Virus record (IMG/VR): IMGVR_UViG_3300030433_000377
Span: 1-44,678 of that record
Reading direction: 5' to 3' (one strand)
Length of the DNA: 44,678 nt
Origin: a virus
Lineage: Duplodnaviria; Caudoviricetes
The notes under the pieces are model-generated. The model did no database searches. It saw nothing but the letters and a program-made list of their open reading frames with translations, and had not been told where the DNA came from. A program made the translations under genes and the position numbers. Below, one piece after another: positions 4,859-26,898 of this stretch (position 1 is the stretch's first letter; every line of letters begins with the position of its first letter).

Positions 4859-5080
4859 ATGGCTAAGGGCGGTCTAGGTAAATGGCACGGCGAAAAGTGG
4901 GTCGATGTAAAGACCGGCAAGCCGTGCGGACGTAAATCTGCTAAAGGCAGTAAGCGTCCTTACCCTGCGTGCCGCCCTAAAGCTGTTGCAGGAAAGATAA
5001 CAAAGAAAGAAGCCGCGAAGAAGACGGGGCCGAAGAGAGTTAAGTGGTCAACGACCGCATCAGGAAAGAAGAGATCATGA
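4859..5080 (+). CDS. Small basic protein (C-half of a DUF5872-like viral family)
   Basis: GLGKWHGEKWVDV...PCGR...YPACRP motif; begins MAKGG. Confidence 0.7.
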   Translation: MAKGGLGKWHGEKWVDVKTGKPCGRKSAKGSKRPYPACRPKAVAGKITKKEAAKKTGPKRVKWSTTASGKKRS

Positions 5081-5238
5081 AGACATGTCCAGGTTGCCCT
5101 ACCCCGGCTAAATGTAAAGCCGCAGGTAAGTGCTTAAAGTCAGCTAAGATGTACGGCGGCGGTATGGCTAAGAAAGGCTATGCTAAAGGCGGATACGCTA
5201 AGTGTGGTGCATCGAATCCTCCATCAAAGAAACGATAA
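5077..5238 (+). CDS. 53-aa Cys-rich basic peptide
   Basis: ATGA overlap start at 5077; CPGCPTPAKCKAAGKC, then YAKGGYAKCGASNPPSKKR. Confidence 0.75.
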   Translation: MKTCPGCPTPAKCKAAGKCLKSAKMYGGGMAKKGYAKGGYAKCGASNPPSKKR

Positions 5239-5425
5239 GATTATGGCACACTGTAATACCAAAAAAGGTATGGCAAAAGGTGGTATGGCTAAAAAGTTTC
5301 CAGATCTGAACAAAGATGGTAAAGTCACCAAAGCTGATATCTTAAAAGGTCGCGGCGTAAAAGGCTTTAACAAAGGCGGTTACGCTAAGTGCGGCGCATC
5401 TAATCCACCATCAAAGAAACGATAA
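5185..5425 (+). repeat. 54-nt direct repeat (5185-5238 and 5372-5425)
   Basis: 49 of 54 nt identical; all five differences are synonymous third positions. Confidence 0.9.
5243..5425 (+). CDS. 60-aa basic peptide with EF-hand-like loop
   Basis: ATG at 5243; DLNKDGKVTKAD; same 17-aa C-terminus as the preceding gene. Confidence 0.75.
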   Translation: MAHCNTKKGMAKGGMAKKFPDLNKDGKVTKADILKGRGVKGFNKGGYAKCGASNPPSKKR

Positions 5426-5426
5426 T

Positions 5427-5714
5427 ATGTTTTACGATAAGTACAAAAAAGAGATCGAAGCAGCCGGTTATACTTTGACTGACGGTCAGGTATACGATCA
5501 CATGGGCAATCAGTGTGCCGGTGAAGATCGCTTCGGTCAGGCTTGGAGTAAAGACGTTAATCTCGACGCTATGATTGCTGAGATTGAATCTAAGCCTAAG
5601 AAGAAGGTCGCCAAGAAGGTTCGCGCACGTGATGCGAAGGGTAAGCTAAAAGCTGATGATCCTAGCACACCTGACGTGAACGAAGCTTGGACTACCGTTG
5701 AGGTCGATGAGTAA
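5427..5714 (+). CDS. Hypothetical protein
   Basis: C-terminal RAR...G...ADDPSTPDVNEAW motif familiar from marine phage proteins. Confidence 0.75.
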   Translation: MFYDKYKKEIEAAGYTLTDGQVYDHMGNQCAGEDRFGQAWSKDVNLDAMIAEIESKPKKKVAKKVRARDAKGKLKADDPSTPDVNEAWTTVEVDE

Positions 5715-6079
5715 TGGCATTCGCAGGGGTAGCTAATTACGTAACGAAGTCGATTGACGTTAGCTCTACTAGCTCGTCAAACCCTGACGATGTGTACGTA
5801 TGCCCGAACAATTTTGTAGCTCTCCTGCGTTTCATTCACATCTCTAACGGCGACGCTCAAAAGAAGATTAGCTTGTACTGGTATCAGGCAGATACAGCTA
5901 CACATCATTACATCGTCGATGAGTTTAAACCAGATGCTAACCAACTACATGAAGTTGTGCAGGGCGGTGGTTACTTAGCGTTGAAGCCTGGTGACAAGAT
6001 CCAAGCGTTTAAAGAGTCTGGCGGTGACTTTCACATTACCGTCTCTGGTGAAGAACACTTCCAGCCTACGCTAGCTTAG
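5714..6079 (+). CDS. Hypothetical beta-rich protein, possibly virion-associated
   Basis: 121 aa, TAATG coupling; VYVCP...IHISN...LALKPGDKIQA pattern. Confidence 0.75.
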   Translation: MAFAGVANYVTKSIDVSSTSSSNPDDVYVCPNNFVALLRFIHISNGDAQKKISLYWYQADTATHHYIVDEFKPDANQLHEVVQGGGYLALKPGDKIQAFKESGGDFHITVSGEEHFQPTLA

Positions 6080-6133
6080 CAAAAGTCTTTTGCATAACTA
6101 AGTCTATGAGCTATGCTTAAAATGCATATAACT
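6079..6133 (+). promoter_or_regulatory. Palindromes and a -10-like element upstream of the DUF1127 gene (LysR-type box)
   Basis: GCAAAAG-T-CTTTTGC (6079-6093); TATGC-N7-GCATA (6112-6128, fits T-N11-A); TATAACT at 6127-6133. Confidence 0.55.
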
Positions 6134-6163
6134 ATGGGTATCCACCAACCAAAGGAGATACTC

Positions 6164-6337
6164 ATGGTGAAGTTTATCAAAGACTGGATTAAAGCTTCTT
6201 GGGAAGCATTTGAAGAACATCAACAGCGTCGCGCAGACTACATGGTTATGATGGCAATGCCCGACCGCGAACTACATGACTTAGGCATCAGCCGTTCTGA
6301 GATCCAAGGGAAGGTCTACGGCAAAAAGAAAAAGTGA
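6164..6337 (+). CDS. DUF1127 (YjiS-like) small protein
   Basis: RBS AAGGAG then ATG at 6164; MPDRELHDLGISRSEI matches the DUF1127 signature. Confidence 0.85.
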   Translation: MVKFIKDWIKASWEAFEEHQQRRADYMVMMAMPDRELHDLGISRSEIQGKVYGKKKK

Positions 6338-6348
6338 GATTACCTGTT

Positions 6349-6717
6349 ATGGCCCGTACACTTACTGAACGACAGCAGAAGTTTCTTGACGTTCTCTTTG
6401 ATGAGGCCGCAGGTGATGTCGTGCTGGCTAAGAAGCTTGCAGGCTATTCAGAGTCCACTGCTACGTCTCATGTTGTGGACGCTCTGAAGGATGAGATTGC
6501 TGATCGCACTCGTTCTTTCTTTGCTCGTACTGCACCGAAGGCGGCATTCTCAATGGCTAACGCGATCAATGATCCGACAGAGCTAGGCATCAAAGAAAAG
6601 ATGGTAGCAGCTAAGGATCTGTTGGATCGCGCTGGTTTGGGTAAAGTCGAGAAAGTAGATGTTACCTCTGGTGGTGGCATCTTCTACTTACCTGCTAAAG
6701 AAGGTACTAACGAATAA
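6349..6717 (+). CDS. terS: Terminase small subunit (putative)
   Basis: LTERQQKFL...AKKLAGYS HTH-like N-terminus, AAKDLLDRAG; lies upstream of TerL. Confidence 0.7.
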   Translation: MARTLTERQQKFLDVLFDEAAGDVVLAKKLAGYSESTATSHVVDALKDEIADRTRSFFARTAPKAAFSMANAINDPTELGIKEKMVAAKDLLDRAGLGKVEKVDVTSGGGIFYLPAKEGTNE

Positions 6718-6731
6718 TACCACAACGTGAT

Positions 6732-7142
6732 TTGGGCTTTTGGGAATTACCGAAGCCTCCAAAAGGCCATGACAAACAGTGGCACGAGATTGTAAGGTTG
6801 AACTCTAAAGTACCGTTTGGGTACGAAGTACATCCTGAAAATGATCGACGTCTCGTGCCGATTGAGAGCGAGCTAGAGGCTTTAGAACTTGCTAAAAGAC
6901 ACCTAAAGCAGTATAGTCATCGGGCAGTAGCGCAATGGTTAACTAGAGAAACCGGGCGCTACATTTCTCATATGGGCCTGAAGAAAAGAGTCGAAATTGA
7001 GCAACGACGTAAAAAAGCAGCTACAATTAAACGCAAGCTTGCCAAGTGGCTCGAAGAAACCCTTGCGGAAATCGAAAAGCTCGAAAACGAAGGTGTCGGA
7101 GCCTACGCCGGTATCGGCACAGAAGGACTCTCCAAAGATTAA
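6732..7142 (+). CDS. Hypothetical HTH-like protein between TerS and TerL
   Basis: KVPFGY...SHRAVAQWL...ISHMGLKKR; start uncertain (TTG 6732 or ATA 6714). Confidence 0.65.
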   Translation: MGFWELPKPPKGHDKQWHEIVRLNSKVPFGYEVHPENDRRLVPIESELEALELAKRHLKQYSHRAVAQWLTRETGRYISHMGLKKRVEIEQRRKKAATIKRKLAKWLEETLAEIEKLENEGVGAYAGIGTEGLSKD

Positions 7143-8586
7143 GACTGTACCTGCTGAACCTGTTGCAGCAGAGTTCGATGTCGAAGAAGCACAGGATATT
7201 GTCTTTAAGCCTAACGCGGGGCCGCAGACATATTTCCTAAGTTCATCAGAACGTGAAGTACTTTATGGTGGTGCAGCAGGTGGTGGTAAGTCCTACGCTA
7301 TGTTGGCAGATCCACTACACGGGTTGAACGATCCTAACTTCAGCGGACTACTCGTACGTCACACCACTGAAGAACTCCGTGAACTTATCCAGAAAAGCCA
7401 AGAGTTATATCCGAAGGCTATTCCTGGTATCAAATGGTCAGAGCGTAAATCGCAGTGGACCTCACCCAAAGGTGGCAGACTATGGATGTCGTATCTAGAT
7501 AAAGATACTGACGTTACTCGCTACCAGGGCCAGGCATTTAACTGGATTGGCTTTGACGAATTAACGCAGTGGCCTACCCCTTACGCATGGGATTATATGC
7601 GATCCCGTTTGCGTTCTGCTCAAGCGAAAGACCTGGGCCTATACATGCGAGCTACAACTAACCCAGGTGGTGCAGGCCATAGTTGGGTTAAAAAGATGTT
7701 CATTGATCCTGCCCCGGCCGGTAAAGCTTTTTGGGCAACGAATGTCGAAACTGGTGAGACTATTACATTCCCGAAGGGGCATAGTAGAGAAGGCGAGCCT
7801 CTGTTTAAGCGCCGGTTCATTCCGGCATCTTTGTTTGACAACCCTTACTTGGCTGAAGCAGGTGACTACGAAGCCATGCTGCTGTCGCTACCAGAGCACC
7901 AGCGCAAACAGCTACTAGAGGGTAACTGGGATATTAACGAAGGGGCAGCGTTCCCGGAATTTGACCGTAGCGTACATGTAGTACCTAAAGAAGACATACC
8001 TTCTAATTGGACTCGCTTTCGCGCATGTGACTACGGTTATGGTTCATACACTGGCGTATTATGGTTTGCGGTCGCGCCAGATGAACAACTGATTGTGTAC
8101 CGCGAGATGTATGTTTCTAAAGTTACGGCTAGTGATCTAGCGGATCTGATATTGGAAGCAGAAGCAAACGATGGTACAATACGGTACGGTGTGCTGGATT
8201 CCTCCCTGTGGCACAACCGTGGTGACACGGGGCCGTCGTTGGCTGAACAGATGAACATGAAGGGTTGCAGATGGCGACCTTCAGATCGGTCACGAGGCTC
8301 CCGTGTTGCTGGTAAGAACGAGATACACAGGCGGTTGCAGGTAGACGAGTTTACCGAAAAACCACGGCTAGTGTTTATGGACAATTGTACTAACACGATT
8401 GCTCAGATACCTAGCATTCCTCTGGACAAGAGAAACCCGGAAGACGTTGATACCAACGCAGAAGATCACCTTTACGATGCGTTACGTTATGGCATCATGA
8501 CACGACCACGCAGCAGCATATGGGACTATGACCCCGCAACACAGCGCACTGGCTTCCAAGCAAGTGACCCAGCATTCGGATATTGA
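6997..8586 (+). CDS. terL: Terminase large subunit
   Basis: Walker A YGGAAGGGKS, Walker B IGFDE, coupling motif ATTNPGG, nuclease DYG...DHLYDALRY; start uncertain (could be GTG 7093). Confidence 0.95.
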   Translation: MSNDVKKQLQLNASLPSGSKKPLRKSKSSKTKVSEPTPVSAQKDSPKIKTVPAEPVAAEFDVEEAQDIVFKPNAGPQTYFLSSSEREVLYGGAAGGGKSYAMLADPLHGLNDPNFSGLLVRHTTEELRELIQKSQELYPKAIPGIKWSERKSQWTSPKGGRLWMSYLDKDTDVTRYQGQAFNWIGFDELTQWPTPYAWDYMRSRLRSAQAKDLGLYMRATTNPGGAGHSWVKKMFIDPAPAGKAFWATNVETGETITFPKGHSREGEPLFKRRFIPASLFDNPYLAEAGDYEAMLLSLPEHQRKQLLEGNWDINEGAAFPEFDRSVHVVPKEDIPSNWTRFRACDYGYGSYTGVLWFAVAPDEQLIVYREMYVSKVTASDLADLILEAEANDGTIRYGVLDSSLWHNRGDTGPSLAEQMNMKGCRWRPSDRSRGSRVAGKNEIHRRLQVDEFTEKPRLVFMDNCTNTIAQIPSIPLDKRNPEDVDTNAEDHLYDALRYGIMTRPRSSIWDYDPATQRTGFQASDPAFGY

Positions 8587-8588
8587 TA

Positions 8589-10721
8589 ATGGATGAATTA
8601 GACGAAATGATGTTTGAGACAGATGAGGTCGTCGCTGCGGAAGAGGCAGACGATATCTTGTTTGCTGAGTCACGTATTGTCTCTTTTGTGTCGGAGCGCT
8701 TTAAGCGTGCAGAAGATGCTCGTTACGCTGACGAAGAGCGTTGGTTACGCGCCTATCGTAACTATCGAGGTTTGTACGGTTCTGATGTACAATTTACGGA
8801 CGCCGAGAAGTCTCGCGTATTTGTAAAGGTTACTAAGACTAAGACCTTGGCTGCTTACGGTCAGATCGTTGACGTACTATTTGGTAACAACAAGTTTCCG
8901 CTCACTGTTAACCCTACGGTTCTGCCAGACGGTGTTGTAGAGGCAGCACACATCAACGTTGACCCGAATGCAGCTATGGCAGGTGATGCACTGAAAGCTG
9001 TCACTCGTGATGAAGCGTCTAAGCCTTACTTGATCGGCCCTGATACAGAGCTACGCCCTGGCGAAACGATGTCAGATCTGCGAGCGCGTCTAGGCCCGGT
9101 AGCAGACAAAGTAGATCCTGTAAGCGATAAGATTGTAGAAGGTCAAGGCACTACTGCCACTACTGTTACTTTCCATCCTGCAATGGTTGCAGCTAAGAAG
9201 ATGGAGAAGAAGATCCATGACCAGCTAAATGAGTCAGGCGCGAACGTACACCTACGCAGCATGGCCTTTGAGATGGCTTTGTTGGGTACAGGTGCTATGA
9301 AAGGCCCGTTCGCTGTAGACAAAGAATATGCTAACTGGAACGAGATGGGCGAATATGATCCGCTCATCAAGACCGTACCTGAGTGTAGCCACGTAAGTTT
9401 GTGGGATCTATACCCTGATCCTGAAGCACGTTCGATGGACGAAGCTGAATACGTTGTCGAGCGTCACCGGATGTCGCGCACTCAGATGCGTGCTCTAAAA
9501 GGTCGTCCTTTCTTCCTAGATGAAGCTATCGAGAAGGTTATCTCTGTAGGCCCAGACTATGTACAGAAGTACTGGGAACAGACCATGGAAGACAACGATA
9601 CTACGCCTAACTCAGAGCGCTTTGAAGTGTTAGAGTTTTGGGGTTACGTAGATCGTGACATTCTCGAAGAGCAAGGTGTAGAAGTTCCTGACGAGCTAGC
9701 TGATCTAGACGAACTTTCTTGTAACGTATGGGTGTCTGGCGGTGAAGTACTTCGCTTTGTGCTGAACCCATTCAAGCCTGCACGTATTCCGTACTACGCC
9801 GTTCCTTACGAGCACAACCCATACAGCTTCTTTGGCGTTGGCATCGCAGAGAACATGGATGACACCCAGACGTTGATGAATGGCTTTATGCGTATGGCTA
9901 TCGACAACGCCGCATTGTCAGGGAACTTGATCGTTGAAGTGGACGAAACTAACCTCGTACCTGGACAAGACCTATCAATCTATCCAGGCAAGATATTTAG
10001 ACGTCAAGGTGGCGCTCCTGGACAGGCTATCTTCGGTACTAAGTTTCCTAACGTTGCTAATGAAAATATGCAGCTCTTTGACAAGGCACGAGTACTCGCG
10101 GATGAAAGCACAGGGTTTCCTTCCTTTGCCCATGGTCAGACCGGCGTCTCTGGTGTTGGCCGGACTGCTTCTGGCATTTCTATGCTTATGTCTGCTGCTA
10201 ACGGTAGCATTCGTACTGTCGTTAAGAACGTTGATGATTATCTTCTCCGTCCGCTAGGAAAGTCTTTCTTTGCATTTAACATGCAGTTTGACTTTGATAC
10301 AGACATCCGTGGCGACTTGGAAGTACGTGCTGCAGGTACTGAAAGCTTGATGGCTAACGAAGTACGGTCGCAGCGTCTTATGCAATTCTTGCAGGTTGCA
10401 CAGAACCCAGCCCTTGCACCTTTCGCTAAAATGGATTATATTATCCGCGAAATCGCTAAGAGTATGGACCTAGACCCCGATAAGGTCACGAACTCACTGC
10501 AAGATGCAGCTATTCAGGCAGAGATCCTGAAAGGGTTCCAAGCTCAACAACCTCAACCAGAACCTGGCATTGAAGGTCAAGGCGTCCAAGGCGTCCAAGA
10601 TACTTCAGGTGGCGGCGGTGCTCAGATGGGTATCGGTACAGCACCTACACCAGGTGAGCAAGGATTTACCGGAAATGAGCAGCCTCAAGCTCCTGGTCAA
10701 CAACAAGGCCCTTTGGGATAG
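8589..10721 (+). CDS. Portal protein
   Basis: ~710 aa directly after TerL; LLGTGAMK, DLYPDP, FFGVGIAE, RTASG motifs of P22-like portals; Q/G-rich tail. Confidence 0.9.
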   Translation: MDELDEMMFETDEVVAAEEADDILFAESRIVSFVSERFKRAEDARYADEERWLRAYRNYRGLYGSDVQFTDAEKSRVFVKVTKTKTLAAYGQIVDVLFGNNKFPLTVNPTVLPDGVVEAAHINVDPNAAMAGDALKAVTRDEASKPYLIGPDTELRPGETMSDLRARLGPVADKVDPVSDKIVEGQGTTATTVTFHPAMVAAKKMEKKIHDQLNESGANVHLRSMAFEMALLGTGAMKGPFAVDKEYANWNEMGEYDPLIKTVPECSHVSLWDLYPDPEARSMDEAEYVVERHRMSRTQMRALKGRPFFLDEAIEKVISVGPDYVQKYWEQTMEDNDTTPNSERFEVLEFWGYVDRDILEEQGVEVPDELADLDELSCNVWVSGGEVLRFVLNPFKPARIPYYAVPYEHNPYSFFGVGIAENMDDTQTLMNGFMRMAIDNAALSGNLIVEVDETNLVPGQDLSIYPGKIFRRQGGAPGQAIFGTKFPNVANENMQLFDKARVLADESTGFPSFAHGQTGVSGVGRTASGISMLMSAANGSIRTVVKNVDDYLLRPLGKSFFAFNMQFDFDTDIRGDLEVRAAGTESLMANEVRSQRLMQFLQVAQNPALAPFAKMDYIIREIAKSMDLDPDKVTNSLQDAAIQAEILKGFQAQQPQPEPGIEGQGVQGVQDTSGGGGAQMGIGTAPTPGEQGFTGNEQPQAPGQQQGPLG

Positions 10722-10875
10722 CTTTAACGAGCACGTCGATGCCGAACTAAATCAGCTATACTCTCGTCTGAGCGTAGCTGATGAGGTTTTAGAACTTCAT
10801 AGAATCCAGGGTGAGATCCGCGCCCTAAAGAGACTCAAATACCTACGGGAGAAAGTAAATGGACATGTCACCTGA
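10675..10875 (+). CDS. Small helical protein after the portal
   Basis: ATG at 10675; HRIQGEIRALKRL pattern typical of post-portal genes. Confidence 0.7.
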   Translation: MSSLKLLVNNKALWDSFNEHVDAELNQLYSRLSVADEVLELHRIQGEIRALKRLKYLREKVNGHVT

Positions 10876-13800
10876 GCGTATTGATCCAGTGTCGGGAAAT
10901 AAAATCCCGCTTGGTGCAACCGCTGAGAACGTACGCGATGACATCCCTGCTCAGTTGAGTGAGGGTGAGTACGTAGTGCCTGCTGATGTGGTGAACTACT
11001 ACGGCGTTAAGTTCTTTGAAGATCTGCGCTCAGATGCCAAAGAAGGTTATCAAGAGATGGCTGCTACCGGTCGCATTGGCGGTGAGCCTATTGATGATCA
11101 AGACTCTTTCCCATTTAGTTTGGAAGAACTCGCTGTCGAAGGTGAGTCTGAGTATAACTCGGGCGGCGTTGTACAGGCCAACGAAGGCATCTACGCTCGA
11201 CGGGCAGGTATTTCTCTACCAAGCCGAGCACCCGTTGCACCTGCTGCACCTGTAGCCCCGGCACCTGTAACAACCTCTATCGAAGCTGCGGCTGAAGAGC
11301 GAGCAGGTACAGGAGGCCGACGACTAAGACCAAATATGTATGGCGGACATAGCGTTACTGCTCGGCGGTTTATCAACCCTCGGACAGGTCAGGTTGTGAC
11401 CATGAAAGGCGTTAACATTCCCGGCTCTTTACGGCTCGGTGATATGGAACGTGATCCTGAAACGGGAAAGCTAACAGGGCAGTCATCAGGTCCAACTTTT
11501 CAGCCGATTGACCGCACAGGTCAGCCTTATCAAATCCCTTCTGATTTTATACCGCTGCAGGATTTACCCGAAGATAACCCTTACTATGAATCAAGTGGTG
11601 CGGAAGGTTACACACCTTACGGGTTCCGTGCAGGCTTTGCCGGTTTAGGTGAGTATGCACAGCGTCGCAAGTTTGATCCGTTTATGAGTCGTGATGCGGA
11701 AGGTGAGTTACAGGGTTCGGCCTCTGTGTTCCGTAACGATTATGCTGGTCGCCCGGATATGCAATTAGATCTTTTTGATCGCCGTAAGGGTTACCGAGAG
11801 ATGGACCTGGAGGGCTTAGTCGATTCGTTTGACGAGCGTATGGCTACAGGTAAGTACGAAGGCCAAGCAGAAGGTCGTATTGGAATGTTCCAAGGTAACT
11901 TCGGTAACCTTGAAACTAATAAAATCCTACGTGCCGCAGAAGAAGACATTCTTAATATAGATAAAATGTTGCAGCAACCTGGGATTACACCTCAACAGGT
12001 TCAAGAACTGCGGTCTGCTCGTGCTCAGTATGCAGCGGAATTAACCCGTATGCAAAACATTCTGTACGACAAGGGTCTAGATCGTGATGCAGATGGTTTA
12101 GAAGACAGTTTCGTTGAGAAGTTCTCAGCAGGCACGGCTATGCCAGACAATGAAAACCTCGGCGTGTTGCGCGCTGGTGCTCAACTAGTTACAGGTTTCG
12201 GTGCTGATGACACGGCAGATGATCGCGTTAATCTTGCAGAACAAGGTCGGGCAGCACGGCAGACAGCAGCGGCAGCAGCCCCACGCATTCAAGGCTACGC
12301 AGCTCCTACGCCTACGTATGCAGATGATCCGATTAGTCAGCAGGTAAAGACACAATCACAAAGCCTCACGGCGCGGGGAGCACACCCCCTTGTGAATACC
12401 CCTGTTACAGGGGAGAGTGTGACGTATCAGCCTGGTGCTCGCTTCGCAGGACAGCCCGCTTCTGTTACGTCTAGGGATGCATATTTGAATGATCCGCGAC
12501 TTTATCTTCGAGATCCGGCACGAGAAGGAAACCCGACATCTACACGTATAAATCCTGCAACAGGTGCTAGTACGACATATTCGCCAGGTGCAGGTTATAC
12601 AGCACTCAGACAGGCAGAAGCGGCCGCACGTCAGTTGCGTGACTTGGGTTTAGGCGTTCCTAAGCGTTTACCAGACACGCCCGATATTCGAGTCCAGCCT
12701 ATGGCTGATCCTAACAGCCCAGAAGCATTTATGCAGCAGCGTATGCGAGGCTTCAACGAAGGTGGTCAGGTACGTGGTTACCAGTATGGCGGTATGCCTC
12801 AGCGTACTCCAGATGTAGATCTGTCAGAGCTACCTAATCTTAATCCGCGTACCGTAGTTAGTGACGGCTCTTCCGTTGCAGAGGCTGCTGAAAACCGTGC
12901 TAACTTAGCTAACTTCTTCCGTAACCTACCCGGCAATGTAGCTAGTGCAGCATCTGATGCAGCATCTAGTGTGTCTGATGCAGCAGCTTACGCAGCAGAT
13001 CCTTCTAACTATATCCCTAATGCAGAACAGCGAGCAGCAAACAGAGCAGCTAATGAAGCCGCTGCTGCTGAGCGCCGCGCCGTTAATCAAAACCTGGCTA
13101 ACAGCGCAGGTGAACTGGCAGATTTCGCATCCAATGCAGCTTCTTTTACTGGCGCACGATTGTCGGGGCTTTCTCAAGTACCAGGCACAATGGCGGCAAA
13201 TGCAGCGACGCTTTACCACCGTATGGAAGGTGGCGCAGAACGTAATGCATATGATGCAGGCTATCAAGCTGGTTATAAAGCAGGTCTTAGTGCTTCTGGT
13301 AAAATGTCTAGTCAGCCTGGTGGACGCGGTGCAGCACCTGTTGAGTCAGGCACGTATGGTCGTGGCACCGTTGCTGGACCTACGGCTGAGCAGATCCAGT
13401 ACTCGCCTTTGAGTTCTTACACTTTGCGTTCAGCAAATGCTGCTCGTTTAAGTGACACATCGGCTAACCTGACAGGTGCAGCAGCTACACGTGGAGCAGC
13501 ACCAGTTGCTACAGGGACGTATGGACGCGGTACGGTAGCAGGCCCAACGGCAGCACAGCTACGTAGTGCTCGTGATCCAATGCCATCGCAGCCTGCATCA
13601 CCTATGAATAACGATCCGATCCCTTCACAGCCTGGTGTAGCACCGTTTATGGATCCGATCCCGTCACAGCCGGGTGTTGCGCCTAAGCGTTATGCTGATC
13701 CAATCCCTGGCGCACCAGATTTGGTTCCGACACCGCAGAGTTACTTGAGTGGACTAAGCGCTCCTCTGGAAGATTTCCCGTCAGAGACGTTTAGCCTCAA

Positions 13801-14011
13801 GCAGCGTAGCCCTGCAGATGCTCCGCCACGTGTTCAAACACAGACTGCGCCAGTTCAAATGCAGACGGAGCAGGGACGGCAGTCAGTACAGGATCGTATC
13901 GCTGAGTTGAAAGCTCAGCTTGGATTGACGGACACTAGCACTGCAGCACCCGCATCTAATGCTCTTGATAGAGCCAATAGTCAGCTAGATCTATTCCTTG
14001 GAGGAAACTAA
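10859..14011 (+). CDS. 1050-aa low-complexity protein with N-terminal DDIPAxLSEGEYVV module
   Basis: Long ORF in the head module; A/P/G-rich, internal repeats, several [FY]xxGG motifs; start could be ATG 10865. Confidence 0.85.
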   Translation: MDMSPERIDPVSGNKIPLGATAENVRDDIPAQLSEGEYVVPADVVNYYGVKFFEDLRSDAKEGYQEMAATGRIGGEPIDDQDSFPFSLEELAVEGESEYNSGGVVQANEGIYARRAGISLPSRAPVAPAAPVAPAPVTTSIEAAAEERAGTGGRRLRPNMYGGHSVTARRFINPRTGQVVTMKGVNIPGSLRLGDMERDPETGKLTGQSSGPTFQPIDRTGQPYQIPSDFIPLQDLPEDNPYYESSGAEGYTPYGFRAGFAGLGEYAQRRKFDPFMSRDAEGELQGSASVFRNDYAGRPDMQLDLFDRRKGYREMDLEGLVDSFDERMATGKYEGQAEGRIGMFQGNFGNLETNKILRAAEEDILNIDKMLQQPGITPQQVQELRSARAQYAAELTRMQNILYDKGLDRDADGLEDSFVEKFSAGTAMPDNENLGVLRAGAQLVTGFGADDTADDRVNLAEQGRAARQTAAAAAPRIQGYAAPTPTYADDPISQQVKTQSQSLTARGAHPLVNTPVTGESVTYQPGARFAGQPASVTSRDAYLNDPRLYLRDPAREGNPTSTRINPATGASTTYSPGAGYTALRQAEAAARQLRDLGLGVPKRLPDTPDIRVQPMADPNSPEAFMQQRMRGFNEGGQVRGYQYGGMPQRTPDVDLSELPNLNPRTVVSDGSSVAEAAENRANLANFFRNLPGNVASAASDAASSVSDAAAYAADPSNYIPNAEQRAANRAANEAAAAERRAVNQNLANSAGELADFASNAASFTGARLSGLSQVPGTMAANAATLYHRMEGGAERNAYDAGYQAGYKAGLSASGKMSSQPGGRGAAPVESGTYGRGTVAGPTAEQIQYSPLSSYTLRSANAARLSDTSANLTGAAATRGAAPVATGTYGRGTVAGPTAAQLRSARDPMPSQPASPMNNDPIPSQPGVAPFMDPIPSQPGVAPKRYADPIPGAPDLVPTPQSYLSGLSAPLEDFPSETFSLKQRSPADAPPRVQTQTAPVQMQTEQGRQSVQDRIAELKAQLGLTDTSTAAPASNALDRANSQLDLFLGGN

Positions 14012-14014: not shown

Positions 14015-17000
14015 ATGAAGCGCGGTTATCAAGAAGGCGGAATGCCACAGCGTACCCTTTTCCCGGATTTGCCTGACGAGGAATACAACCAGTTAATCGG
14101 CTCACTTGGCGGGAATTACGAAATTGATCCAGAACTAGGCGCCAGGGTAGATGCGTACCTTGCGAATATGCCAACGCTGCAGCAGCGACTTGCAGCAGAG
14201 GACGCTGCGCTCGAAGCCAAGATGGAGACGGGGCGCATTGCACACGAGCAGCGAATGGCTGAAATCGAGGCGGAACTTCAAGCGTCAAAAGAACAACGTC
14301 GACGTGAAGATGCGTTACTAGCCGAGCTAAGAGCAAACCCTTATCAACCAACACCGCCTATTGTTACACCTGAAGAGTCAGCAGCAATAGATGCAAACAT
14401 CTTAGCACGTCAACAACAGATTGAAGATAGTAGAGCGCAACAAGAACTAGCTGAGCTAGAGTATTTGCTAAAGGTTCAACAAGGGCAGCAAGTAGACAAC
14501 GCCATTGAAGGTCTACGAATGGCAGATTCTGCGCTGCCTCTAGCCGAAGGTTTAGCGGGGTTAGATCCTTCAGAAGTACCTGCTAGTACAGATAGTTCAG
14601 GTTTAGTAGACCCTACTTCGACTAATACTGCTGCTCAGAATCGTCGGTTAGAAAACGCGATTAAGCAACAGAGTAATTTCGACTCTAATGTGCTCAATCG
14701 CGCAATATCTGATATAAACATTGCAGATGTTGCCGACCCAGGCTTGATGTCTCCTGATGAGGTCGAGCGTTTAGACGATGATATTACCGCCAAGTATGAA
14801 TCTCAGCAGCAGCAGCTTCAAGAACTGGATAAGGAAGCACTTCAGATAAAGAGTGACACGGAAAGTTTAGCTTTAGCTGTTAAAGAGTTCTCACAAAACA
14901 CTACCGCGTATGCTGACTTTAGAGATCAAGTAAATCAAGTACAGCAGGAACTTGCTCAATTTGATGAAGACACTGATTCTTATGTTAATCGCTTTGCCAA
15001 TCTAGAAGAAGACCTTCAACGCCAGCTAAACAGTCTTAGTAACGAGGCTACCGTAGCTTCTAACCCGTCTGCAGGGACTGTAAACACAGAGGAAGAGCAG
15101 CTTGCTCTAGCTGAGAGTTTTGGCATTGACAGGGCTGCTCTGGTAGAAGCTCAACGTCAGAAGATCCTTAGAGAGGGTGTAGTAGAGCCTGTTCTATCTT
15201 CTGAGATGCGGCATCTTCTCTTTACTATGGAACTAGAGAGAGCATACGCACAAAAAACACTAGAAGCGATGGGTCCAATAGGAGAAGGGCGCTCTGAGTA
15301 CCCTACCTATTTCAAGGGCGAAATCAAGCAGACTAACACGGATTTTACTACCGATAGAGATAATCTACTAGATCTTCACCTAGCTCGTCGCGAGCGTCTT
15401 AACGCTATTGAAAAGCCAGACTTCTCGAACTTAGCAGATGTGCAAGCCTACAGTGAGTTGGTTCGCAAAGAGATCATCAACATTGACGATGTACTGGCTT
15501 TGTCACAGCGTGCACGTCAAGCAATGCAGAAAAGCATCTATGAAGGTCGCGTTAGTTACGAAGACGTACTGGCGGCGCTTGAACTTCGGAAAATCGCAGA
15601 TCGAGGTGTCCGTAGAGAGGTTACCAGCGAGGGCTTTACTTATACCGTACAGGGTGATGTTGTAGGCGAGGGTACTGTAGCTGGTGGCCTAGAACCAGTA
15701 GATCCTACATCGCCTTTGTACCAGACCGAAGGTAACGTAATCTCATCTAATTTAGCACGTGGTAGAACTGATTTCTCTAGAAGAAGTGTAGGTCTAGGCT
15801 TGGGTAGCTCAAGAAAATCTCGTCGGTTCTATAATGAAGAAGGTATCCCCTTCGGACACACTAATGCTTCTGCTGTAGATTACGTCTCGGATGATGATAC
15901 GTCAGGTTCAAGATTACCAGATGAGCAACGCACCGTTGGTGGAGGAACAACTGTCATTAATCCTGATGGTGTATCTCGGGAAGAGTACGACGCTGTAATG
16001 GAAGCCCTAAGTCGGACACCTCTGGGTGTCTTCAGCACAGCCGGTCTAAATGATTTCTTGCGGTTTGCGCAATTGGCTCCATCCGACAGTGCCGCAGGTC
16101 AGCTATACGCTGAGCGTACACAAAAAGGTTTCGAAGGCGGTACCAATAGAGGTCTAGCCGTAGCACAGGAAGCAGGTATGCAAATGAACGCAGGTGGCTA
16201 TGCATCTACAGGTCTGATGTATTACGACAATGAAGCGGACAACTTAGAGCGCTACCGTCAAATGTCTAATGCGGAGCTAGACGCAGAGCTAGGTCGTATT
16301 CGCATGGAAAGCCCTGCTAATCGAGGTTTGCTCACCAATTTGATTATGAGTGTTTTAGGTGAACGTCGTGCTCAAGAGCGTCGTGACACAGTCGGTCCGC
16401 AACAAAGCACCGGCCTTATGGGTTATGACGAGGGCGGTTATGCACGCTTGCCATACGTCAACCTAGACGCGTACGCTGACAGGGTGCTGGAGAATGAGCG
16501 GACCCGCGCTCGGAATGCTGAAATTCTAGCTAACTATAATGAGTACAACCAGCCTATTGCTATGGCTTCAACGCCAGAGCAAAGAGCAACAGCGGGTTCG
16601 TTAGTAGCAGATTTCTTACCGGTTGTAGGTGGTATCAAAGGTTTTAGTGATGCCGCCGGAGTAGCTGCAGATCCGAATGCAACATTGGGTCAAGTTGCTA
16701 CAGCACTTGGCTTAGCTTCTATCGGTCTTTTGCCAGGTGGGCGCCCTGCAACGCGTGCAGCCGATGCTGTTCGAAGCAGGCTCGATGATGTAATGGACCC
16801 GACAAGTGATGCTGGTTCGGCATACCTTGAGAGACAGACCAATCCAACAATGGCTGAACGCATCCAAAACCAGCAAGCAGCGGATGCACGGGGTGTGGGT
16901 GGGGATAATTTTTACCTCTACCCTGAGAACTATCCAGGGCGGTTGCCAAGTCAGTCTTATGGATTGCGCCCTAGCTCTAGAGATACTTTCCCGTATAGCA

Positions 17001-17932
17001 CCAATCCTTCTGTAAACGCTCCGGCGGACAATGCTCCCGCACCATACTTCCAGGGCTTCTCAGGTGAAAAACCGTCGCTTAGCGCACCTACAAGAGCTAT
17101 GCCTCCAGCGCCAGACACACTGTACTTATTACGAGAGCAGATGCAGTATGCAGGTACTGAACGGGGCGCGGCAGCACGAAAGGCATATGACGAATATTAC
17201 GATCAGGTCGAAGCGTCCATACAGCAAAGTTATAACCCAGCCCGGGCATATAATGAGTGGCTATCTCAGCATTTAGATGCGCTAAAGACAGTTCCTATGG
17301 AAGAGGCTGAATACCGTAGGTTAGTACAGGATGCATATGACATTGAGTTGTTCGGCCAACCTGTGACGAACCGTCCTATGTCTAACGCACCTCGGACAAC
17401 TGTTACACTCAATCAAGACGGTGTTCCTATCAAAGTAGAAACTAGCCCTGTTTCTACGCCTACAGAAAGCCCTGTATTAGGCGGAGGTCTTATGGAAAAC
17501 ACAGAAGCTTCGCGTAGCTCAACCCCTTCGATAAGCTCTCTACGCGGCACGATGGGTGATCGTGAACGCATGAACGAAGAGTTAAGGGAGGCTGTTGCTG
17601 CTCTTGAGGCTCTAGACGAGCCAAGCTCTGATATTGTTGATGCTGTCAAAGATACAACTAATATGATTCAAGAGGCTGACGGTTTGTTGGCTCGAACACC
17701 TGGCGGTCCATCAGCGTCAAGTCTAGGCTACGGTGGGTTTAGTATTAATAACCTAGAAGATTTGACAGATCAGTGGTCACGTGCTAATATCTCTGAGAGT
17801 GAATACCGCCGAGCACTACAACAAATGGGTGTCAGAATTGGCGGTCTAAAAGGTAATACCGACCTCGATCCCGGCGCTTTAATATTTGAATTACCTGACG
17901 GTACAAAAGTACGCGGCATCGACAATATCTAA
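14015..17932 (+). CDS. 1305-aa acidic multi-segment protein, probable virion cargo
   Basis: RBS GGAGG at 14000-14004; starts MKRGYQEGGMPQRT; coiled coils and a PT-TG-like segment. Confidence 0.85.
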   Translation: MKRGYQEGGMPQRTLFPDLPDEEYNQLIGSLGGNYEIDPELGARVDAYLANMPTLQQRLAAEDAALEAKMETGRIAHEQRMAEIEAELQASKEQRRREDALLAELRANPYQPTPPIVTPEESAAIDANILARQQQIEDSRAQQELAELEYLLKVQQGQQVDNAIEGLRMADSALPLAEGLAGLDPSEVPASTDSSGLVDPTSTNTAAQNRRLENAIKQQSNFDSNVLNRAISDINIADVADPGLMSPDEVERLDDDITAKYESQQQQLQELDKEALQIKSDTESLALAVKEFSQNTTAYADFRDQVNQVQQELAQFDEDTDSYVNRFANLEEDLQRQLNSLSNEATVASNPSAGTVNTEEEQLALAESFGIDRAALVEAQRQKILREGVVEPVLSSEMRHLLFTMELERAYAQKTLEAMGPIGEGRSEYPTYFKGEIKQTNTDFTTDRDNLLDLHLARRERLNAIEKPDFSNLADVQAYSELVRKEIINIDDVLALSQRARQAMQKSIYEGRVSYEDVLAALELRKIADRGVRREVTSEGFTYTVQGDVVGEGTVAGGLEPVDPTSPLYQTEGNVISSNLARGRTDFSRRSVGLGLGSSRKSRRFYNEEGIPFGHTNASAVDYVSDDDTSGSRLPDEQRTVGGGTTVINPDGVSREEYDAVMEALSRTPLGVFSTAGLNDFLRFAQLAPSDSAAGQLYAERTQKGFEGGTNRGLAVAQEAGMQMNAGGYASTGLMYYDNEADNLERYRQMSNAELDAELGRIRMESPANRGLLTNLIMSVLGERRAQERRDTVGPQQSTGLMGYDEGGYARLPYVNLDAYADRVLENERTRARNAEILANYNEYNQPIAMASTPEQRATAGSLVADFLPVVGGIKGFSDAAGVAADPNATLGQVATALGLASIGLLPGGRPATRAADAVRSRLDDVMDPTSDAGSAYLERQTNPTMAERIQNQQAADARGVGGDNFYLYPENYPGRLPSQSYGLRPSSRDTFPYSTNPSVNAPADNAPAPYFQGFSGEKPSLSAPTRAMPPAPDTLYLLREQMQYAGTERGAAARKAYDEYYDQVEASIQQSYNPARAYNEWLSQHLDALKTVPMEEAEYRRLVQDAYDIELFGQPVTNRPMSNAPRTTVTLNQDGVPIKVETSPVSTPTESPVLGGGLMENTEASRSSTPSISSLRGTMGDRERMNEELREAVAALEALDEPSSDIVDAVKDTTNMIQEADGLLARTPGGPSASSLGYGGFSINNLEDLTDQWSRANISESEYRRALQQMGVRIGGLKGNTDLDPGALIFELPDGTKVRGIDNI

Positions 17933-22527: not shown

Positions 22528-22528
22528 A

Positions 22529-24601
22529 ATGGCAGGCTATACACGTCAAGATACCGCAGACAACATTGCTAACGGTAACGTTATTGATGCTACTGACTTG
22601 GACAACGAGTTCAACCAGGTACAGTCTGCTTTTAATTCCTCTACGGGTCACAAGCATGATGGCACCGCAGGTGAAGGCGCACCGATTGAAAAGATTGGCC
22701 CTTCGCAAGATGTGGTCGCTACGGCATCTACTCTTGAGCCTAAGACGACCAATACGGTAGACTTAGGTACGACTACTAAGCAGTATAAAGATCTGCACTT
22801 AGATGGTACAGCTAACATCGACAGCCTTGTGGCTGACACTGCTGACATCAACGGTGGTACGATTGATGGCGCTACCATCGGTGGTACTACTGCTGCTGCT
22901 ATCACGGGTACAACGATTACGGGTACGTCTCTTGTCGGCCCTGTAACGGGTAACGTGACCGGCAATGTCACAGGTAATGTTACTGGCAACGTAACAGGTG
23001 ATCTAACTGGCGCGGTAACTGGTAATGTTACCGGCGACCTAACTGGTGACGTAACCGGAGATGTGACCGGTAACTTGACGGGTAATGTCACTGGTAACGT
23101 GACAGGCAATGTTACAGGTAATGTAACGGGTACGACCTCTGACATCAGCAACCACGACACAGATGATCTTTCTGAAGGTACGACTAATCAGTATTACACT
23201 GATGCTCGCTCTCGTGGCGCTATCTCGGTAACGGGTACTGGCATTAGCTATGACTCTAGCACAGGTGTTATCACTGGATCAGCTTCTACTCCTGCTGACG
23301 CTACCGATACCACAAAAGGTATTGCATCGTTTGATGAGACTGACTTCACTGTAACCAGCGGTGACGTCACCATCAATGCAGAGCGTGTGCAAGACTTGGT
23401 CGGCGCCATGGTCACGGGTAACACTGAGACTGGCATTAGCGTAACGTATCAGGATGATGACGGCACGTTAGACTTCGTTGTTTCTGATGTTACTCTCGGC
23501 ACGAACACCACAGGCGATTACGTTACGAGCCTGGTAGCAGGCACAGGTGTTACGCTCACTAACAACAGCGGTGAGAGCGCTACTCCGACGGTTGCTATCG
23601 GTCAGGCCGTTGGTACTACTGATAGCGTTACTTTTGCAGGCGTTACCGCCCCTCTGACAGGTAATGTCACGGGTAACGTAACCGGTAACGTAACGGGTGA
23701 TGTCACGGGTAACGCTGACACAGCTACTACTCTCGAAACGGCTCGTACAATCGGTGGCGTATCGTTCGACGGTAGTGCTAATATTGATCTACCAGGTGTC
23801 AATACTTCAGGTACGCAAGACACCTCTGGTACTGCTACCAACGCTACTAACATCAACATCAGTGCGAACACTTCAACGGATACCACTGCGTACCCTGTGC
23901 TCGTTGGCGCATCTACCACGGGCAACCAAGCTCCGCTGATTGACAATGCAGACTTGTCATATAACGCTTCTACTGGTACACTTAGCGCTACCAAGTTCAG
24001 CGGTGACGGTAGTAGCTTGACTGGTATTGCTAGCGGTGGCTTGTTCTCTCCTGTTAGCGGTCGTAGCTGGGTAAGCGCTCAAGAGACTATAACTCCCGGC
24101 TCTTATGCGAGTCCTGCTTCTTATAGCATCACCGCTCCGTCAGATCAGGGTCTTTGGCTTCGGGGGATGTGGTGGTTTACGTCATGGGTTAACAATTTTA
24201 CAGATAAAATCTATATAGACTGTACCCTCGATGGCGGCTGGGCAATGACGGATTTTGTCAACGGCGCAAGCACTACGCTTGAAAATGCTTTACGCCTTGA
24301 TATGTCTGATAAAAGACCTTTCCCTGCTAGTACTGTATTCGGTGTATCCCGTCAAGACCTCAGTGGGTCTTTGTCCAGTGATTCGATGCAAGATGTCTTA
24401 AAACAAATTCAGGTTTCGGCACTAGGAACAGATACCGAAGTTTTCAAGATAGCCACAAATGATTCAGGTGTCTTTACTAGACCAGCGATTATCTTTGAAG
24501 CGTATCTAGAGCCTTCAGGACACCTGACGTTTCAAATCGGTCAAGATAGCAGTGCTATTACGGGTAACACCTCTGTTGGTTATTTAGGATTAGAGGTATA
24601 G
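22529..24601 (+). CDS. Tail fiber protein
   Basis: MAGYTRQ...EFNQ...GHKHDG anchor domain; G[ND][VL]T repeats; DDLSEGTTNQYYT and ARTIGGVSFDGSANI fiber motifs. Confidence 0.9.
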   Translation: MAGYTRQDTADNIANGNVIDATDLDNEFNQVQSAFNSSTGHKHDGTAGEGAPIEKIGPSQDVVATASTLEPKTTNTVDLGTTTKQYKDLHLDGTANIDSLVADTADINGGTIDGATIGGTTAAAITGTTITGTSLVGPVTGNVTGNVTGNVTGNVTGDLTGAVTGNVTGDLTGDVTGDVTGNLTGNVTGNVTGNVTGNVTGTTSDISNHDTDDLSEGTTNQYYTDARSRGAISVTGTGISYDSSTGVITGSASTPADATDTTKGIASFDETDFTVTSGDVTINAERVQDLVGAMVTGNTETGISVTYQDDDGTLDFVVSDVTLGTNTTGDYVTSLVAGTGVTLTNNSGESATPTVAIGQAVGTTDSVTFAGVTAPLTGNVTGNVTGNVTGDVTGNADTATTLETARTIGGVSFDGSANIDLPGVNTSGTQDTSGTATNATNINISANTSTDTTAYPVLVGASTTGNQAPLIDNADLSYNASTGTLSATKFSGDGSSLTGIASGGLFSPVSGRSWVSAQETITPGSYASPASYSITAPSDQGLWLRGMWWFTSWVNNFTDKIYIDCTLDGGWAMTDFVNGASTTLENALRLDMSDKRPFPASTVFGVSRQDLSGSLSSDSMQDVLKQIQVSALGTDTEVFKIATNDSGVFTRPAIIFEAYLEPSGHLTFQIGQDSSAITGNTSVGYLGLEV
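22945..23130 (+). repeat. Degenerate 12-nt repeats encoding (GNVT)n; second block near 23660-23715
   Basis: Protein reads TGNVTGNVTGNVTGDLTG... Confidence 0.85.
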
Positions 24602-24605
24602 CAAA

Positions 24606-24956
24606 ATGTTTTACAAGTATAACACAACTTCTGGTCAAGTGCTGGGTATGAGTAATTCACAATCAGCCTTGCAAAATAACCTTCAATCCGGTGAAGCTAT
24701 TGTCGAACAGGCTTCTGCAGTAGGCGGGTATATCTCTGATATGACTGTCACCAACGGCGTAGTGTCAGGGGACAATACCAACCGTCTTAGTGATCAAGTT
24801 CGCACTGAACGAGATAGGCTGCTAGCAGAAACAGATTGGTGGGCTTCGTCTGATCTTACTATGACTGCTGCTCAGACAACATACCGGCAAGACTTGCGTG
24901 ACATCCCTAGTCAGTCAGGCTTTCCAAGCAACGTAACTTGGCCTACTAAGCCGTAA
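24606..24956 (+). CDS. Tail fiber assembly chaperone
   Basis: RTERDRLLAETDW...YRQDLRDIP.Q.GFP..VTWPTKP signature. Confidence 0.85.
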   Translation: MFYKYNTTSGQVLGMSNSQSALQNNLQSGEAIVEQASAVGGYISDMTVTNGVVSGDNTNRLSDQVRTERDRLLAETDWWASSDLTMTAAQTTYRQDLRDIPSQSGFPSNVTWPTKP

Positions 24957-24972
24957 AAAAGGAATACATTAG

Positions 24973-26898
24973 ATGGCTAAAAAGTTTGCAGGCTTTACTC
25001 CGGCGCAGCTAGATCGGATCTTTCCAGAGCTGCAAGGGTTACGCCCTCAAGATAAGCAGACGGTGTTGGACTCTGACCGTAGCATGCAAGACCGTTTGCG
25101 TGAGATGGAGATGGAAGCTCAGCGTCGTATCTCTGGTCGTGAGTTTGCTGAAGGCGGCTTAGCTGATGATGAGTATAAAGTGCCTAAAGCCGACCCAGAA
25201 GAGGGCTACCCTACTTTAACGGGTACAATGGGTCGTTCTGACACTATTACAGATACTTTGTTGAATGATTCGACGTCGGCAGTTACCACAGCAGATGTAG
25301 CTACAACGGAGATTACTGACAGTCAAGTCATTGACCCTACTACAGGTCAGGTCAAAACAGAAGATACGCCAGAGGCTACTACTACCGAAGCGGAAGCCGC
25401 TCCTGATGTAAAAGCTCCTGAAGAAAAGGCTGCTGCCAAAGTAGATGCTACTGAAGTTACTGAGACTGTAAAGTCTACGATGGACTCGCTTGAGGCTGTT
25501 ACTGGTAAGGTAGGAGAAGAGGCTCTTGTTGCTGCTGCTGAAATGGACCCAGCGCAGTTAAGCGCTCTAGGCCTGACAGTAGAGCAGATTGAGGAAGCTC
25601 GTAAAGTTATTGCACCTGAGAAGCGCAAAGTTGAAGAAGGCGAGATGATCGACGGTTCTACCGTTGACATGGCTAAAGTAGAAAAGACTGTCAACTTTGA
25701 AGCAGCTACTGGTGCGCCATCTAGTGACGCTACTGTACAGGGCCAGCTTACAGGTTTGATGGAGCAGTTCGAAGGCAGTGAGCCTCCCGCATGGGCTGCA
25801 GGTGCTATGCGCGCTGCTGCAGCACGTATGGCCTCTCGTGGCTTGTCTGCGTCGTCTATGGCTGGTCAGGCTATCATTCAAGCAGCAATGGAATCTGCCT
25901 TACCTATCGCTGTACAGGACGCACAGACCAGCGCTGCATTTGAACGCCAGAACCTGAGCAATAAGCAACAGGCTGCTATGTTTGCCGCTGAGAAGCGTGC
26001 ACAGTTTCTAAACCTGGAGTTTACGCAAGACTTCCAGGCTAAAGTACAGAACGCTGCACGCATCAGCGAAATCGCTAACATGAACTTCAGTGCTGAACAG
26101 CAGATCGCTCTAGAGAACGCTCGCCTGGCGCAGTCTGTTGACTTAGCTAATATGAACGCTGCTAATGCTAAGATTATGGCTGACGCTGCTGCTATGTCTC
26201 AGGTAGAGTTAACTAACCTGAACAACCGTCAGCAAGCACAAGTGCAGAATGCTAAGACTTTCTTGCAGATGGACATGGCTAACCTAAGCAATGAACAGCA
26301 AGCTGCTATGTTCAAAATGCAGTCTATTACACAGGCTTTGTTGAGCGATCAAGCAGCACAAAATGCTGCAGCACAGTTCAACGCAGCTAGTGAAAACCAA
26401 ACCAATCAGTTCTTTGCTAACCTGGAAAACCAGGTAAGTATGTTCAATAACGAACAGAAGAACGCGATTGCACGCTTTAACGCTGGTGAAGAAAACGCTC
26501 TAAGCCGTTTCAACGCAGAAATGCGTAATCAGCGTGACATGTTTAACGCGCAGAACTCTTTGGTTATCGAACAAGCAAACACTGCGTGGGCGCAGAAAGT
26601 AGCTACTGCTGAAACTGCTGCTATTAACGAGCGTAACATGGAAGCTGCGCGTACAGCTAATGGGTTTACTCAGCTTGCTATGCAGTCTGTTCTACAGGAA
26701 ACGCGTGACCTTATGTCTTGGGCTTGGCAGTCTGCTGAAAACGAAGCCGAACGCGCCAAGTCGATCTTAATCCAACAAATGGAGATTGACCGGGACACTG
26801 AAAAAGCTCGTGAAGCACGTTCTGCCTCTATGTTTAATATGTTAGGCGGTATGTTTGCGGACATCTTCAAGAAAAAAGTTCTAGGGCCAGCGGCTTAG
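24973..26898 (+). CDS. Internal virion (ejection) protein, A/Q/N-rich
   Basis: Long helical QFNA/N..NQ repeats; EFAEGGL motif near the N-terminus; follows tail genes. Confidence 0.7.
   Translation: MAKKFAGFTPAQLDRIFPELQGLRPQDKQTVLDSDRSMQDRLREMEMEAQRRISGREFAEGGLADDEYKVPKADPEEGYPTLTGTMGRSDTITDTLLNDSTSAVTTADVATTEITDSQVIDPTTGQVKTEDTPEATTTEAEAAPDVKAPEEKAAAKVDATEVTETVKSTMDSLEAVTGKVGEEALVAAAEMDPAQLSALGLTVEQIEEARKVIAPEKRKVEEGEMIDGSTVDMAKVEKTVNFEAATGAPSSDATVQGQLTGLMEQFEGSEPPAWAAGAMRAAAARMASRGLSASSMAGQAIIQAAMESALPIAVQDAQTSAAFERQNLSNKQQAAMFAAEKRAQFLNLEFTQDFQAKVQNAARISEIANMNFSAEQQIALENARLAQSVDLANMNAANAKIMADAAAMSQVELTNLNNRQQAQVQNAKTFLQMDMANLSNEQQAAMFKMQSITQALLSDQAAQNAAAQFNAASENQTNQFFANLENQVSMFNNEQKNAIARFNAGEENALSRFNAEMRNQRDMFNAQNSLVIEQANTAWAQKVATAETAAINERNMEAARTANGFTQLAMQSVLQETRDLMSWAWQSAENEAERAKSILIQQMEIDRDTEKAREARSASMFNMLGGMFADIFKKKVLGPAA

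Follow-up and report, generated by a model that had tools for sequence, protein, structure and literature searches.

A bulky-x-x-Gly-Gly peptide shared by six proteins of an HMO-2011-type phage: a candidate maturation cut site in predicted head cargo

The motif-bearing proteins

The window analysed here, IMG/VR virus record IMGVR_UViG_3300030433_000377, is a linear virus record of 44,678 bases, about 81% complete, with 46 proteins. Six of these contain a peptide of the form bulky-x-x-Gly-Gly, where the bulky residue is Phe, Tyr or Met; a first-pass annotation, made from the letters alone, had taken it for a shared tag by which late proteins are cleaved or recognised. The six proteins are reported in Table 1, along with a conserved module that opens one of them and with the neighbouring portal protein. 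All 12 motif copies named in that annotation are in frame within the six open reading frames (ORFs), and the string quoted for the module, DDIPAQLSEGEYVVPADVVNYYGVKFFEDL, corresponds to residues 27-56 of the 1050-amino acid (aa) protein (10937-11026).

Judged from its genes, the phage is an HMO-2011-type roseophage podovirus. Its family A DNA polymerase is 73-74% identical to that of the roseophages CRP-207, CRP-603 and CRP-2 and 56% identical to that of HMO-2011; the late genes are in the HMO-2011 order (terminase, portal, module protein, scaffold, capsid, adaptor, nozzle, fibre, internal proteins), and portal and adaptor are SU10-type. Phages of this type are among the most abundant marine phages. 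No match to a tail tube, a chaperone or a full-length tape measure was found among the 46 proteins in family scans, in agreement with the earlier description of a podovirus devoid of a tape measure.

Table 1. Motif-bearing proteins of the window, the conserved module and the portal protein; single positions mark the first base of a motif copy
Feature	Coordinates	Strand	Remarks
73-aa basic peptide	4859..5080	+	C-terminal half of DUF5872; isoelectric point 10.9; starts M-A-K-G-G, the weakest matrix match (score 3.2)
53-aa basic peptide	5077..5238	+	tandem sites MYGGG (5149-5163) and YAKGG (5179-5193)
60-aa basic peptide	5243..5425	+	MAKGG (5270-5284) and FNKGG (5366-5380); scores 12.6 and 13.2
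1050-aa cassette protein	10859..14011	+	module first, then YNSGG (11153), FNEGG (12752), YQYGG (12779)
Conserved module, residues 1-82 of the 1050-aa protein	10859..11104	+	homologous, by profile comparison, to a tape-measure C-terminal module
1305-aa acidic cassette protein	14015..17932	+	YQEGG (14027), MNAGG (16184), YDEGG (16424); no family match
641-aa probable ejection protein, HMO-2011 gp25 orthologue	24973..26898	+	FAEGG (25144)
Portal protein	8589..10721	+	motif-free; the module may dock on it, judging by crAss001 C1

By position, the 1050-aa protein is the counterpart of HMO-2011 gp49 and CRP-207 gp58. Both giant proteins lack a family match in PHROGs, Pfam and NCBIfam, and the C-terminal part of the 1305-aa protein has no Atlas match. 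In the 641-aa protein the motif closes a conserved leader of about 55 aa, after which a variable segment begins. The starts of the 53-aa and 60-aa ORFs were set by alignment with their orthologues in the relative locus L002. The 3' ends of these two ORFs are nearly identical (5180-5238 and 5367-5425; GGYAKCGASNPPSKKR), as left by a recent duplication, and a CGASNP tail recurs among the basic peptides of relatives.

Specificity and consensus of the motif

The plain pattern [FYM]xxGG occurs 12 times in the six proteins, against 1.76 in shuffled sequences, and 7 times in the other 40, against 7.1. Since the six proteins had been picked post hoc, a weight matrix was trained on proteins of other phages, namely 144 module-bearing proteins (P0007-P0150, 391 sites), with the six closest left out. 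The matrix marks 10 sites in the six proteins, where 0.23 are expected, and 8 of the 10 lie within five proteins that are outside the training; in the other 40 (10,882 aa, including capsid, scaffold, portal and tail proteins) it marks 0 sites, where 0.55 are expected. Four later large or internal-type proteins are among these motif-free ones. The enrichment on which the first-pass annotation depends is confirmed, and is confined to the six. With counts so far above those of shuffled sequences, chance and richness in Gly were rejected as the source of the motif. Shell, tail and packaging proteins (3,592 aa) contain 0 matrix sites, and a capsid-protease system acting on shell proteins was rejected for this reason.

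The family consensus drawn from the matrix is G-[FMY]-[AN]-[EK]-G-G-[LMDYV]-[VA]. In it the flank of the context proposed earlier, G-[FYM]-x-x-GG-[YM]-[AP], gives way to GG-[LMDYV]-[VA]. Two of the 12 copies, MYGGG (5149) and YQYGG (12779), score below the matrix threshold; counterparts are found in relatives, as MYGGG in tandem peptides and as YQDGG or YQQGG in place of YQYGG.

The conserved module

The module has the consensus DPVSGN..P.G...VRDD.PA.LS.GE.VVPADV...G.KFFE.LR..AK.G...M...GRIGG.P, and its homologues amount to 3,165 representatives at 50% clustering (E 0.001). Sequence and profile comparisons establish its homology to a module found at the C-terminus of tape measures of the Burkholderia/Pseudomonas type (PHROG 3547, E 8e-6; tblastn, E 9e-5; hhalign, 97.4%, E 1.5e-11), a fragment of which matches 742 phage records. 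The likeness to lambda gpH put forward by the first-pass annotation holds for this kinship with tape-measure C-termini and is not supported for gpH in particular: no significant match to gpH was obtained, the domain reaching E 0.023 among 6 sequences by way of the tape-measure profile. The lambda motifs named there do exist, as FATGG (733), GEFV (754) and YATGG (778). The module is also homologous to a Rhizobium phage protein. In Rhizobium phage RHph_TM3_14A (L083:2417-3505) it forms the C-terminal part of a 362-aa protein, with an LASGG motif ahead of it, and the gene adjoins an acetyltransferase gene and very large ORFs.

Invariant residues of the module are Gly, Pro, Asp, Glu, Ser, Arg and Lys. 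Across 380 sequences, conservation is 97% or higher in the S, E, D and R columns, and no His or Cys column exceeds 20%. The module shows no match to PF25725 in Pfam at E 10; an Atlas score of 0.84 to the crassvirus cargo domain C1 is taken as a lead only. Sequence searches of the PDB with the module and its alignment gave 0 matches, as did Foldseek against the PDB with the module model, a weak test at a predicted template modelling score of 0.36. The AlphaFold model of the module comprises two confident helices (41-70), with the motif unfolded at low confidence; in the model of homologue P0195, which carries both flanking motifs, the predicted local distance difference test (pLDDT) score averages 56.9, and the motifs, below 50, are not docked on the module. 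The suggestion of a module that acts on the tags, by cleaving or binding them, is not borne out by these models, nor by the column counts.

Conservation and position of the motif in relatives

The motif is kept in homologues, as the first-pass annotation had anticipated. The best 150 module homologues contain 436 motifs, against 91 in shuffled sequences, with at least one copy in 148 of them. In the 641-aa protein the site at residues 55-69, where the conserved leader meets the variable segment, is retained in 40 of 41 non-redundant complete orthologues (from 80 loci), frequently as two copies in tandem. In 50-kb stretches of HMO-2011, CRP-207, CRP-1 and CRP-3 the matrix marks the same protein classes, plus two unannotated short frames. 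In 23 loci all matrix matches (105 out of 105) are on the late-gene strand. Third codon positions at the motif vary (1.27-1.80 bits, 170 distinct sites) while the peptide is kept; selection therefore acts on the peptide.

Joints and protein anatomy were tallied in 141 non-redundant module proteins, out of 210 with at least 500 aa; the pattern used to place the module misplaced at least one protein (P0055), so that these tallies may be off by a few. The two flanks of a site share homologues less often at motifs (0.27; 18 informative of 44 sites) than at controls (0.73; 187 of 423), with p 8.6e-7, and the position of the motif at segment boundaries, pointed out earlier for the window, is thereby substantiated. 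Recognisable cargo (SleB-type hydrolase, LPD23, DUF6782, L5 gp82-like) is present in 11 of 40 scanned relatives of the module protein, and the 10 Pfam cargo domains checked are all free of motif sites. A motif is found directly upstream of the module in 108 of the 141 proteins and directly downstream in 125; the 1050-aa protein of the window has no upstream copy, like 32 of 37 proteins with an N-terminal module. In 91 of the 141 a motif lies within 35 residues of the C-terminus, followed by a tail of median length 13 aa, with 41% Lys+Arg.

Tandem sites are spaced by 9 residues (19 pairs) or 15-16 residues (56 pairs). The tiny proteins of relatives are often nearly pure, Lys-rich chains of the motif, such as repeats of Lys-Lys-Lys-Gly-Met-Ala-Lys-Gly-Gly-Met. 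In fused forms (L008, L019, L046, L069) the GG of a motif runs straight into the Met at which the stand-alone module gene of other phages starts (FSEGG-MALEEQM), and gene fusion therefore happens at the motif.

Cut sites and models in T5, lambda, crAss001 and JBD30

Phage T5 pb2 is reported to be cut after R1127 into pb2* and pb2C (PMC10038345, accessible text). The sequence at this point reads FVPR|AEGGMM, followed by GEHGTEVV; it is the only match of the matrix in 32 kb of T5 late genes, and two distant phages of the T5 type, Ceto and Proteus phage 1, retain it. In the same protein (L087:12122-15781), V1148 stands directly after the Glu of a T-E-V-V strand, 21 residues downstream of R1127.

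Lambda gpH is processed into gpH* and gpHC, a fragment of about 14 kDa, before tails join heads, by a catalyst still called unknown in 2025 (available sections of PMC12617516); a cut at F733|A734 would give 12.5 and 79.8 kDa, as computed. In crAss001 gp45, the modelled density of C1, the portal-bound piece, starts at residue 425 (PMC10172136, in the portion accessible), which is the A of N424|AFGG. The two resolved pieces of gp45, about 420 Å apart, belong to different motif-bounded segments (same portion of PMC10172136). A looser pattern, A-x-G-G, occurs 43 times in 10 C1 homologues, with 9.1 expected. Searches for diverse homologues of lambda gpH and C1 gave near-identical sequences, and no band size for gp45 is given in the text or supplements of PMC6235969. 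For JBD30, the matching tape-measure region is modelled as a hook and a cut is guessed at Arg1066 (PMC11445458, text accessible in part).

Relation to known systems

The closest parallel is the maturation of T5 pb2 and lambda gpH: both are ejected proteins, and the same peptide is found where T5 pb2 is reported to be cut and at positions 733 and 778 of lambda gpH, a short module that contains Glu coming after it. The window phage differs in being a podovirus without a tape measure and in having its 12 sites spread over six proteins, some of them at protein ends or within tiny basic peptides; moreover its module is not significantly similar to those of T5 and lambda, where the site is disputed and unmapped, respectively. 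With the Burkholderia/Pseudomonas tape-measure module (S-D-S-I-P-A-x-L-S-x-G-E-F-V-V) a homologous core is shared, preceded and often also followed by the same motif; the module of the window, in contrast, is enlarged by the insertion DPVSGN and by a helical extension, GRIGG, and is located in a head-cargo-type protein beside the portal gene. This tape-measure module is probably the 'hook' region of JBD30 gp46 (PMC11445458, as far as the text is accessible), phage Paws having stood in for JBD30.

The crassvirus domain C1 (crAss001 gp45; PF25725; PDB 7QOG chain M) is likewise part of a cassette protein, punctuated by x-A-x-G-G and by basic segments and ending in a motif with a basic tail. Its portal-bound domain starts at a motif, and its GE-hydrophobic strand aligns in register with the module; unlike in the window, however, the residue before A is looser, the virus order is different, and no significant sequence, profile or Foldseek match joins the two.

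Polyvalent proteins are proteins of phages and conjugative elements that contain LPD domains. Some relatives of the module protein (11 of 40 scanned) resemble them in their LPD23, DUF6782, SleB-type hydrolase or L5 gp82-like cassettes, while the two giants of the window have no such Pfam match. Processing by prohead proteases, with capsid-targeting peptides, is typical of T4-like and phiKZ-like phages, where a short motif is common to internal proteins and small internal peptides are released. The consensus is a different one, capsid, scaffold and portal of the window have no site, and no prohead protease was recognised.

Interpretation of the motif

The motif, its restriction to six proteins, its conservation, its position where cassettes are exchanged and the kinship of the module with tape measures are observed. 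The peptide is read, with a probability of about one half, as a site of maturation cleavage, X|A/N-x-G-G, within proteins that the head is predicted to contain. The motif is real, and the whole is taken as a tape-measure-type maturation that would here apply to the cargo of a podovirus. A cut site is favoured because T5, crAss001 and lambda give one register. The residue that precedes the cut differs from system to system, being F/Y/M in the window, R in T5 and N in crAss001, so that recognition would lie with the prime side. A protein starting M-A-K-G-G would have the same N-terminus after removal of Met. As for the annotation, its proposal that the tags mark cleavage is made plausible by the reported T5 pb2 cut in the same peptide, and its assignment of the module as cleaver or reader is not supported.

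Under the cut-site reading, the six proteins would be virion cargo. Tails rich in Lys/Arg that follow terminal motifs, and likewise the tiny basic motif chains, may tether the cargo to DNA or procapsid and help to neutralise DNA; the basic tails and the module at the portal would draw the cargo into the procapsid. The module, a candidate reader of the cut site, would fix the giant protein to the portal in the manner of the crAss001 domain C1, which starts at a motif. Cuts before A/N-x-G-G would free single cassettes (hydrolases and polyvalent-type domains in relatives) for passage through the tail, as well as basic peptides of 9-18 residues, and the freed pieces would be ejected. The predicted products are of 10.9, 57.6 and 41.8 kDa for the 1050-aa protein, 79.1, 8.9 and 54.0 for the 1305-aa protein, 6.9 and 62.7 for the 641-aa protein.

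A number of points weigh against a cut. Cleavage, virion location and binding are, for the window phage, predictions, and library scans recognised no protease among the window proteins (in a record about 81% complete). The tandem spacing and the near-terminal sites fit a binding handle as well as a cut. The module has no match in T5 pb2, and its in-register hhalign alignment with crAss001 C1 is not significant (P 0.16-0.27); at score 4, nothing in crAss001 gp45 is marked by the HMO matrix. The T5 cut is disputed, an older study having placed it at V1148 +/-1, and R1127 is in addition a place where trypsin cleaves (PMC11937520, accessible passages). In lambda, the start of gpHC is put near residue 690, upstream of the motif, and the site is called unknown (available sections of PMC12617516). 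Bayfield et al. take gp45 as one threaded chain (PMC10172136, accessible portion), and a model that starts at the motif may merely reflect the motif being ordered.

The peptide may instead be an uncut docking handle, a short beta-turn that binds module, portal or scaffold, bringing about multivalent recruitment of cargo into the procapsid while the proteins stay whole; this is the main rival, possible but less likely than a cut. Terminal copies in most module proteins, the two tandem spacings and the tiny, nearly pure motif-repeat proteins suit a handle, as do the hook modelled for JBD30 (PMC11445458) and the single chain assumed for gp45 by its authors (PMC10172136), both as far as the texts are accessible. 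Against a handle, the T5 pb2 cut, as reported, falls exactly before AEGG (PMC10038345) and the crAss001 C1 density begins exactly at the A of the motif (PMC10172136), and the low-confidence AlphaFold models dock neither flanking motif on the module in cis. As a sub-case of the cut-site reading, the module might itself be a protease that cuts the flanking motifs in cis and tagged proteins in trans, by means of its invariant Ser/Asp/Glu/Arg. In T5, lambda, crAss001 and HMO-2011-type phages alike the site adjoins a Glu-containing module, the hosts span several phyla with no shared protease evident, and the cut of lambda gpH before tail-head joining is in want of a catalyst (PMC12617516, available sections); the strongly conserved S, E, D and R columns point the same way. 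Against these stand the lack of a His or Cys column, a model whose confident part is two helices with no Foldseek match in the PDB, and T5 and lambda modules not significantly similar to that of the window, which together render a module-protease rather unlikely.

That the peptide is nothing but a hinge, a flexible Gly-Gly turn that would leave each cassette to fold and unfold on its own while it is ejected, with neither partner nor cut, agrees with the motifs being at joints and with the low pLDDT around the sites. Such a turn would not fix the aromatic/Met, A/N, E/K and hydrophobic residues around GG, nor would it occur at protein ends and in 53-aa peptides, and it is considered quite improbable. 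A DNA-level recombination site, a duplication scar or chance has least to recommend it: the loss, in 4 of 6 crAss001-like gp45 length variants, of the segment between two motif copies and the duplicated 3' end common to the 53-aa and 60-aa ORFs would fit, but the variation of third codon positions with the peptide kept largely refutes such readings, to which the uniform strand of the 105 matches and the enrichment far above shuffles are also opposed. The chances of this class of explanations are close to negligible.

In the literature searched, with most subscription papers outside its scope, the motif was nowhere described as a shared signal; the word 'motif' is absent from the phiRIO-1 paper, and in the accessible part of PMC4819975 HMO-2011 is represented by its nozzle only. 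If phages had a general grammar by which injected enzymes are loaded, swapped and released, the most variable genes of HMO-2011-type phages would be accounted for. The motif predicts a cut of lambda gpH at F733|A734, sides with R1127|A1128 in T5, and predicts that crAss001 gp45 is cut, which offers an alternative reading of the published structure: the gp45 pieces so far apart may be separate products. It is unlikely, yet of wider consequence, that one self-processing system extends over siphophage tape measures, crassvirus cargo and HMO-2011-type cargo, with the His/Cys-free Glu module of about 60-80 residues as the protease cutting X|A-x-G-G. If so, phages would shuffle injected enzymes as plug-in cassettes, Lys-rich repeats would yield protamine-like peptides, the module would supply the catalyst that is missing from the maturation of lambda gpH and T5 pb2, and crAss001 gp45, in place of one threaded chain, would comprise several proteins.

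Other features of the window

Between portal and module gene lies a small ORF, at about 10718-10875 (listed as 10570-10875), whose position matches HMO-2011 gp50 and CRP-207 gp59. DUF5872 is split over two ORFs, 4131-4313 (profile 1-51) and 4859-5080 (profile 53-110), with an outer-membrane beta-barrel-like gene between them. The product of this gene (4315-4857), possibly a superinfection-exclusion protein, is 180 aa long, begins like a signal peptide and weakly matches an outer-membrane protein beta-barrel (E 8e-5, below cut-off). In relatives (L012, L024, L039, L067) the 60-aa N-terminal half of DUF5872 ends in a motif copy, YSKGG or YNKGG, while that of the window has none. The 493-aa probable ejection protein at 26919-28400 is motif-free and has no match in Pfam, PHROGs and NCBIfam; its C-terminal half may resemble a lysozyme-type hydrolase with a peptidoglycan-binding domain, going by motifs only. 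The DNA polymerase contains a match to a DnaJ (CXXCXGXG) insert (E 0.0037, below the Pfam cut-off), and HMO-2011 gp12 is annotated likewise. A DUF1127 small protein (6113-6337) and the genes at 35211-38583 (PhoH, glutaredoxin, B12-dependent ribonucleotide reductase and MazG) are ordinary for the HMO-2011-type group.

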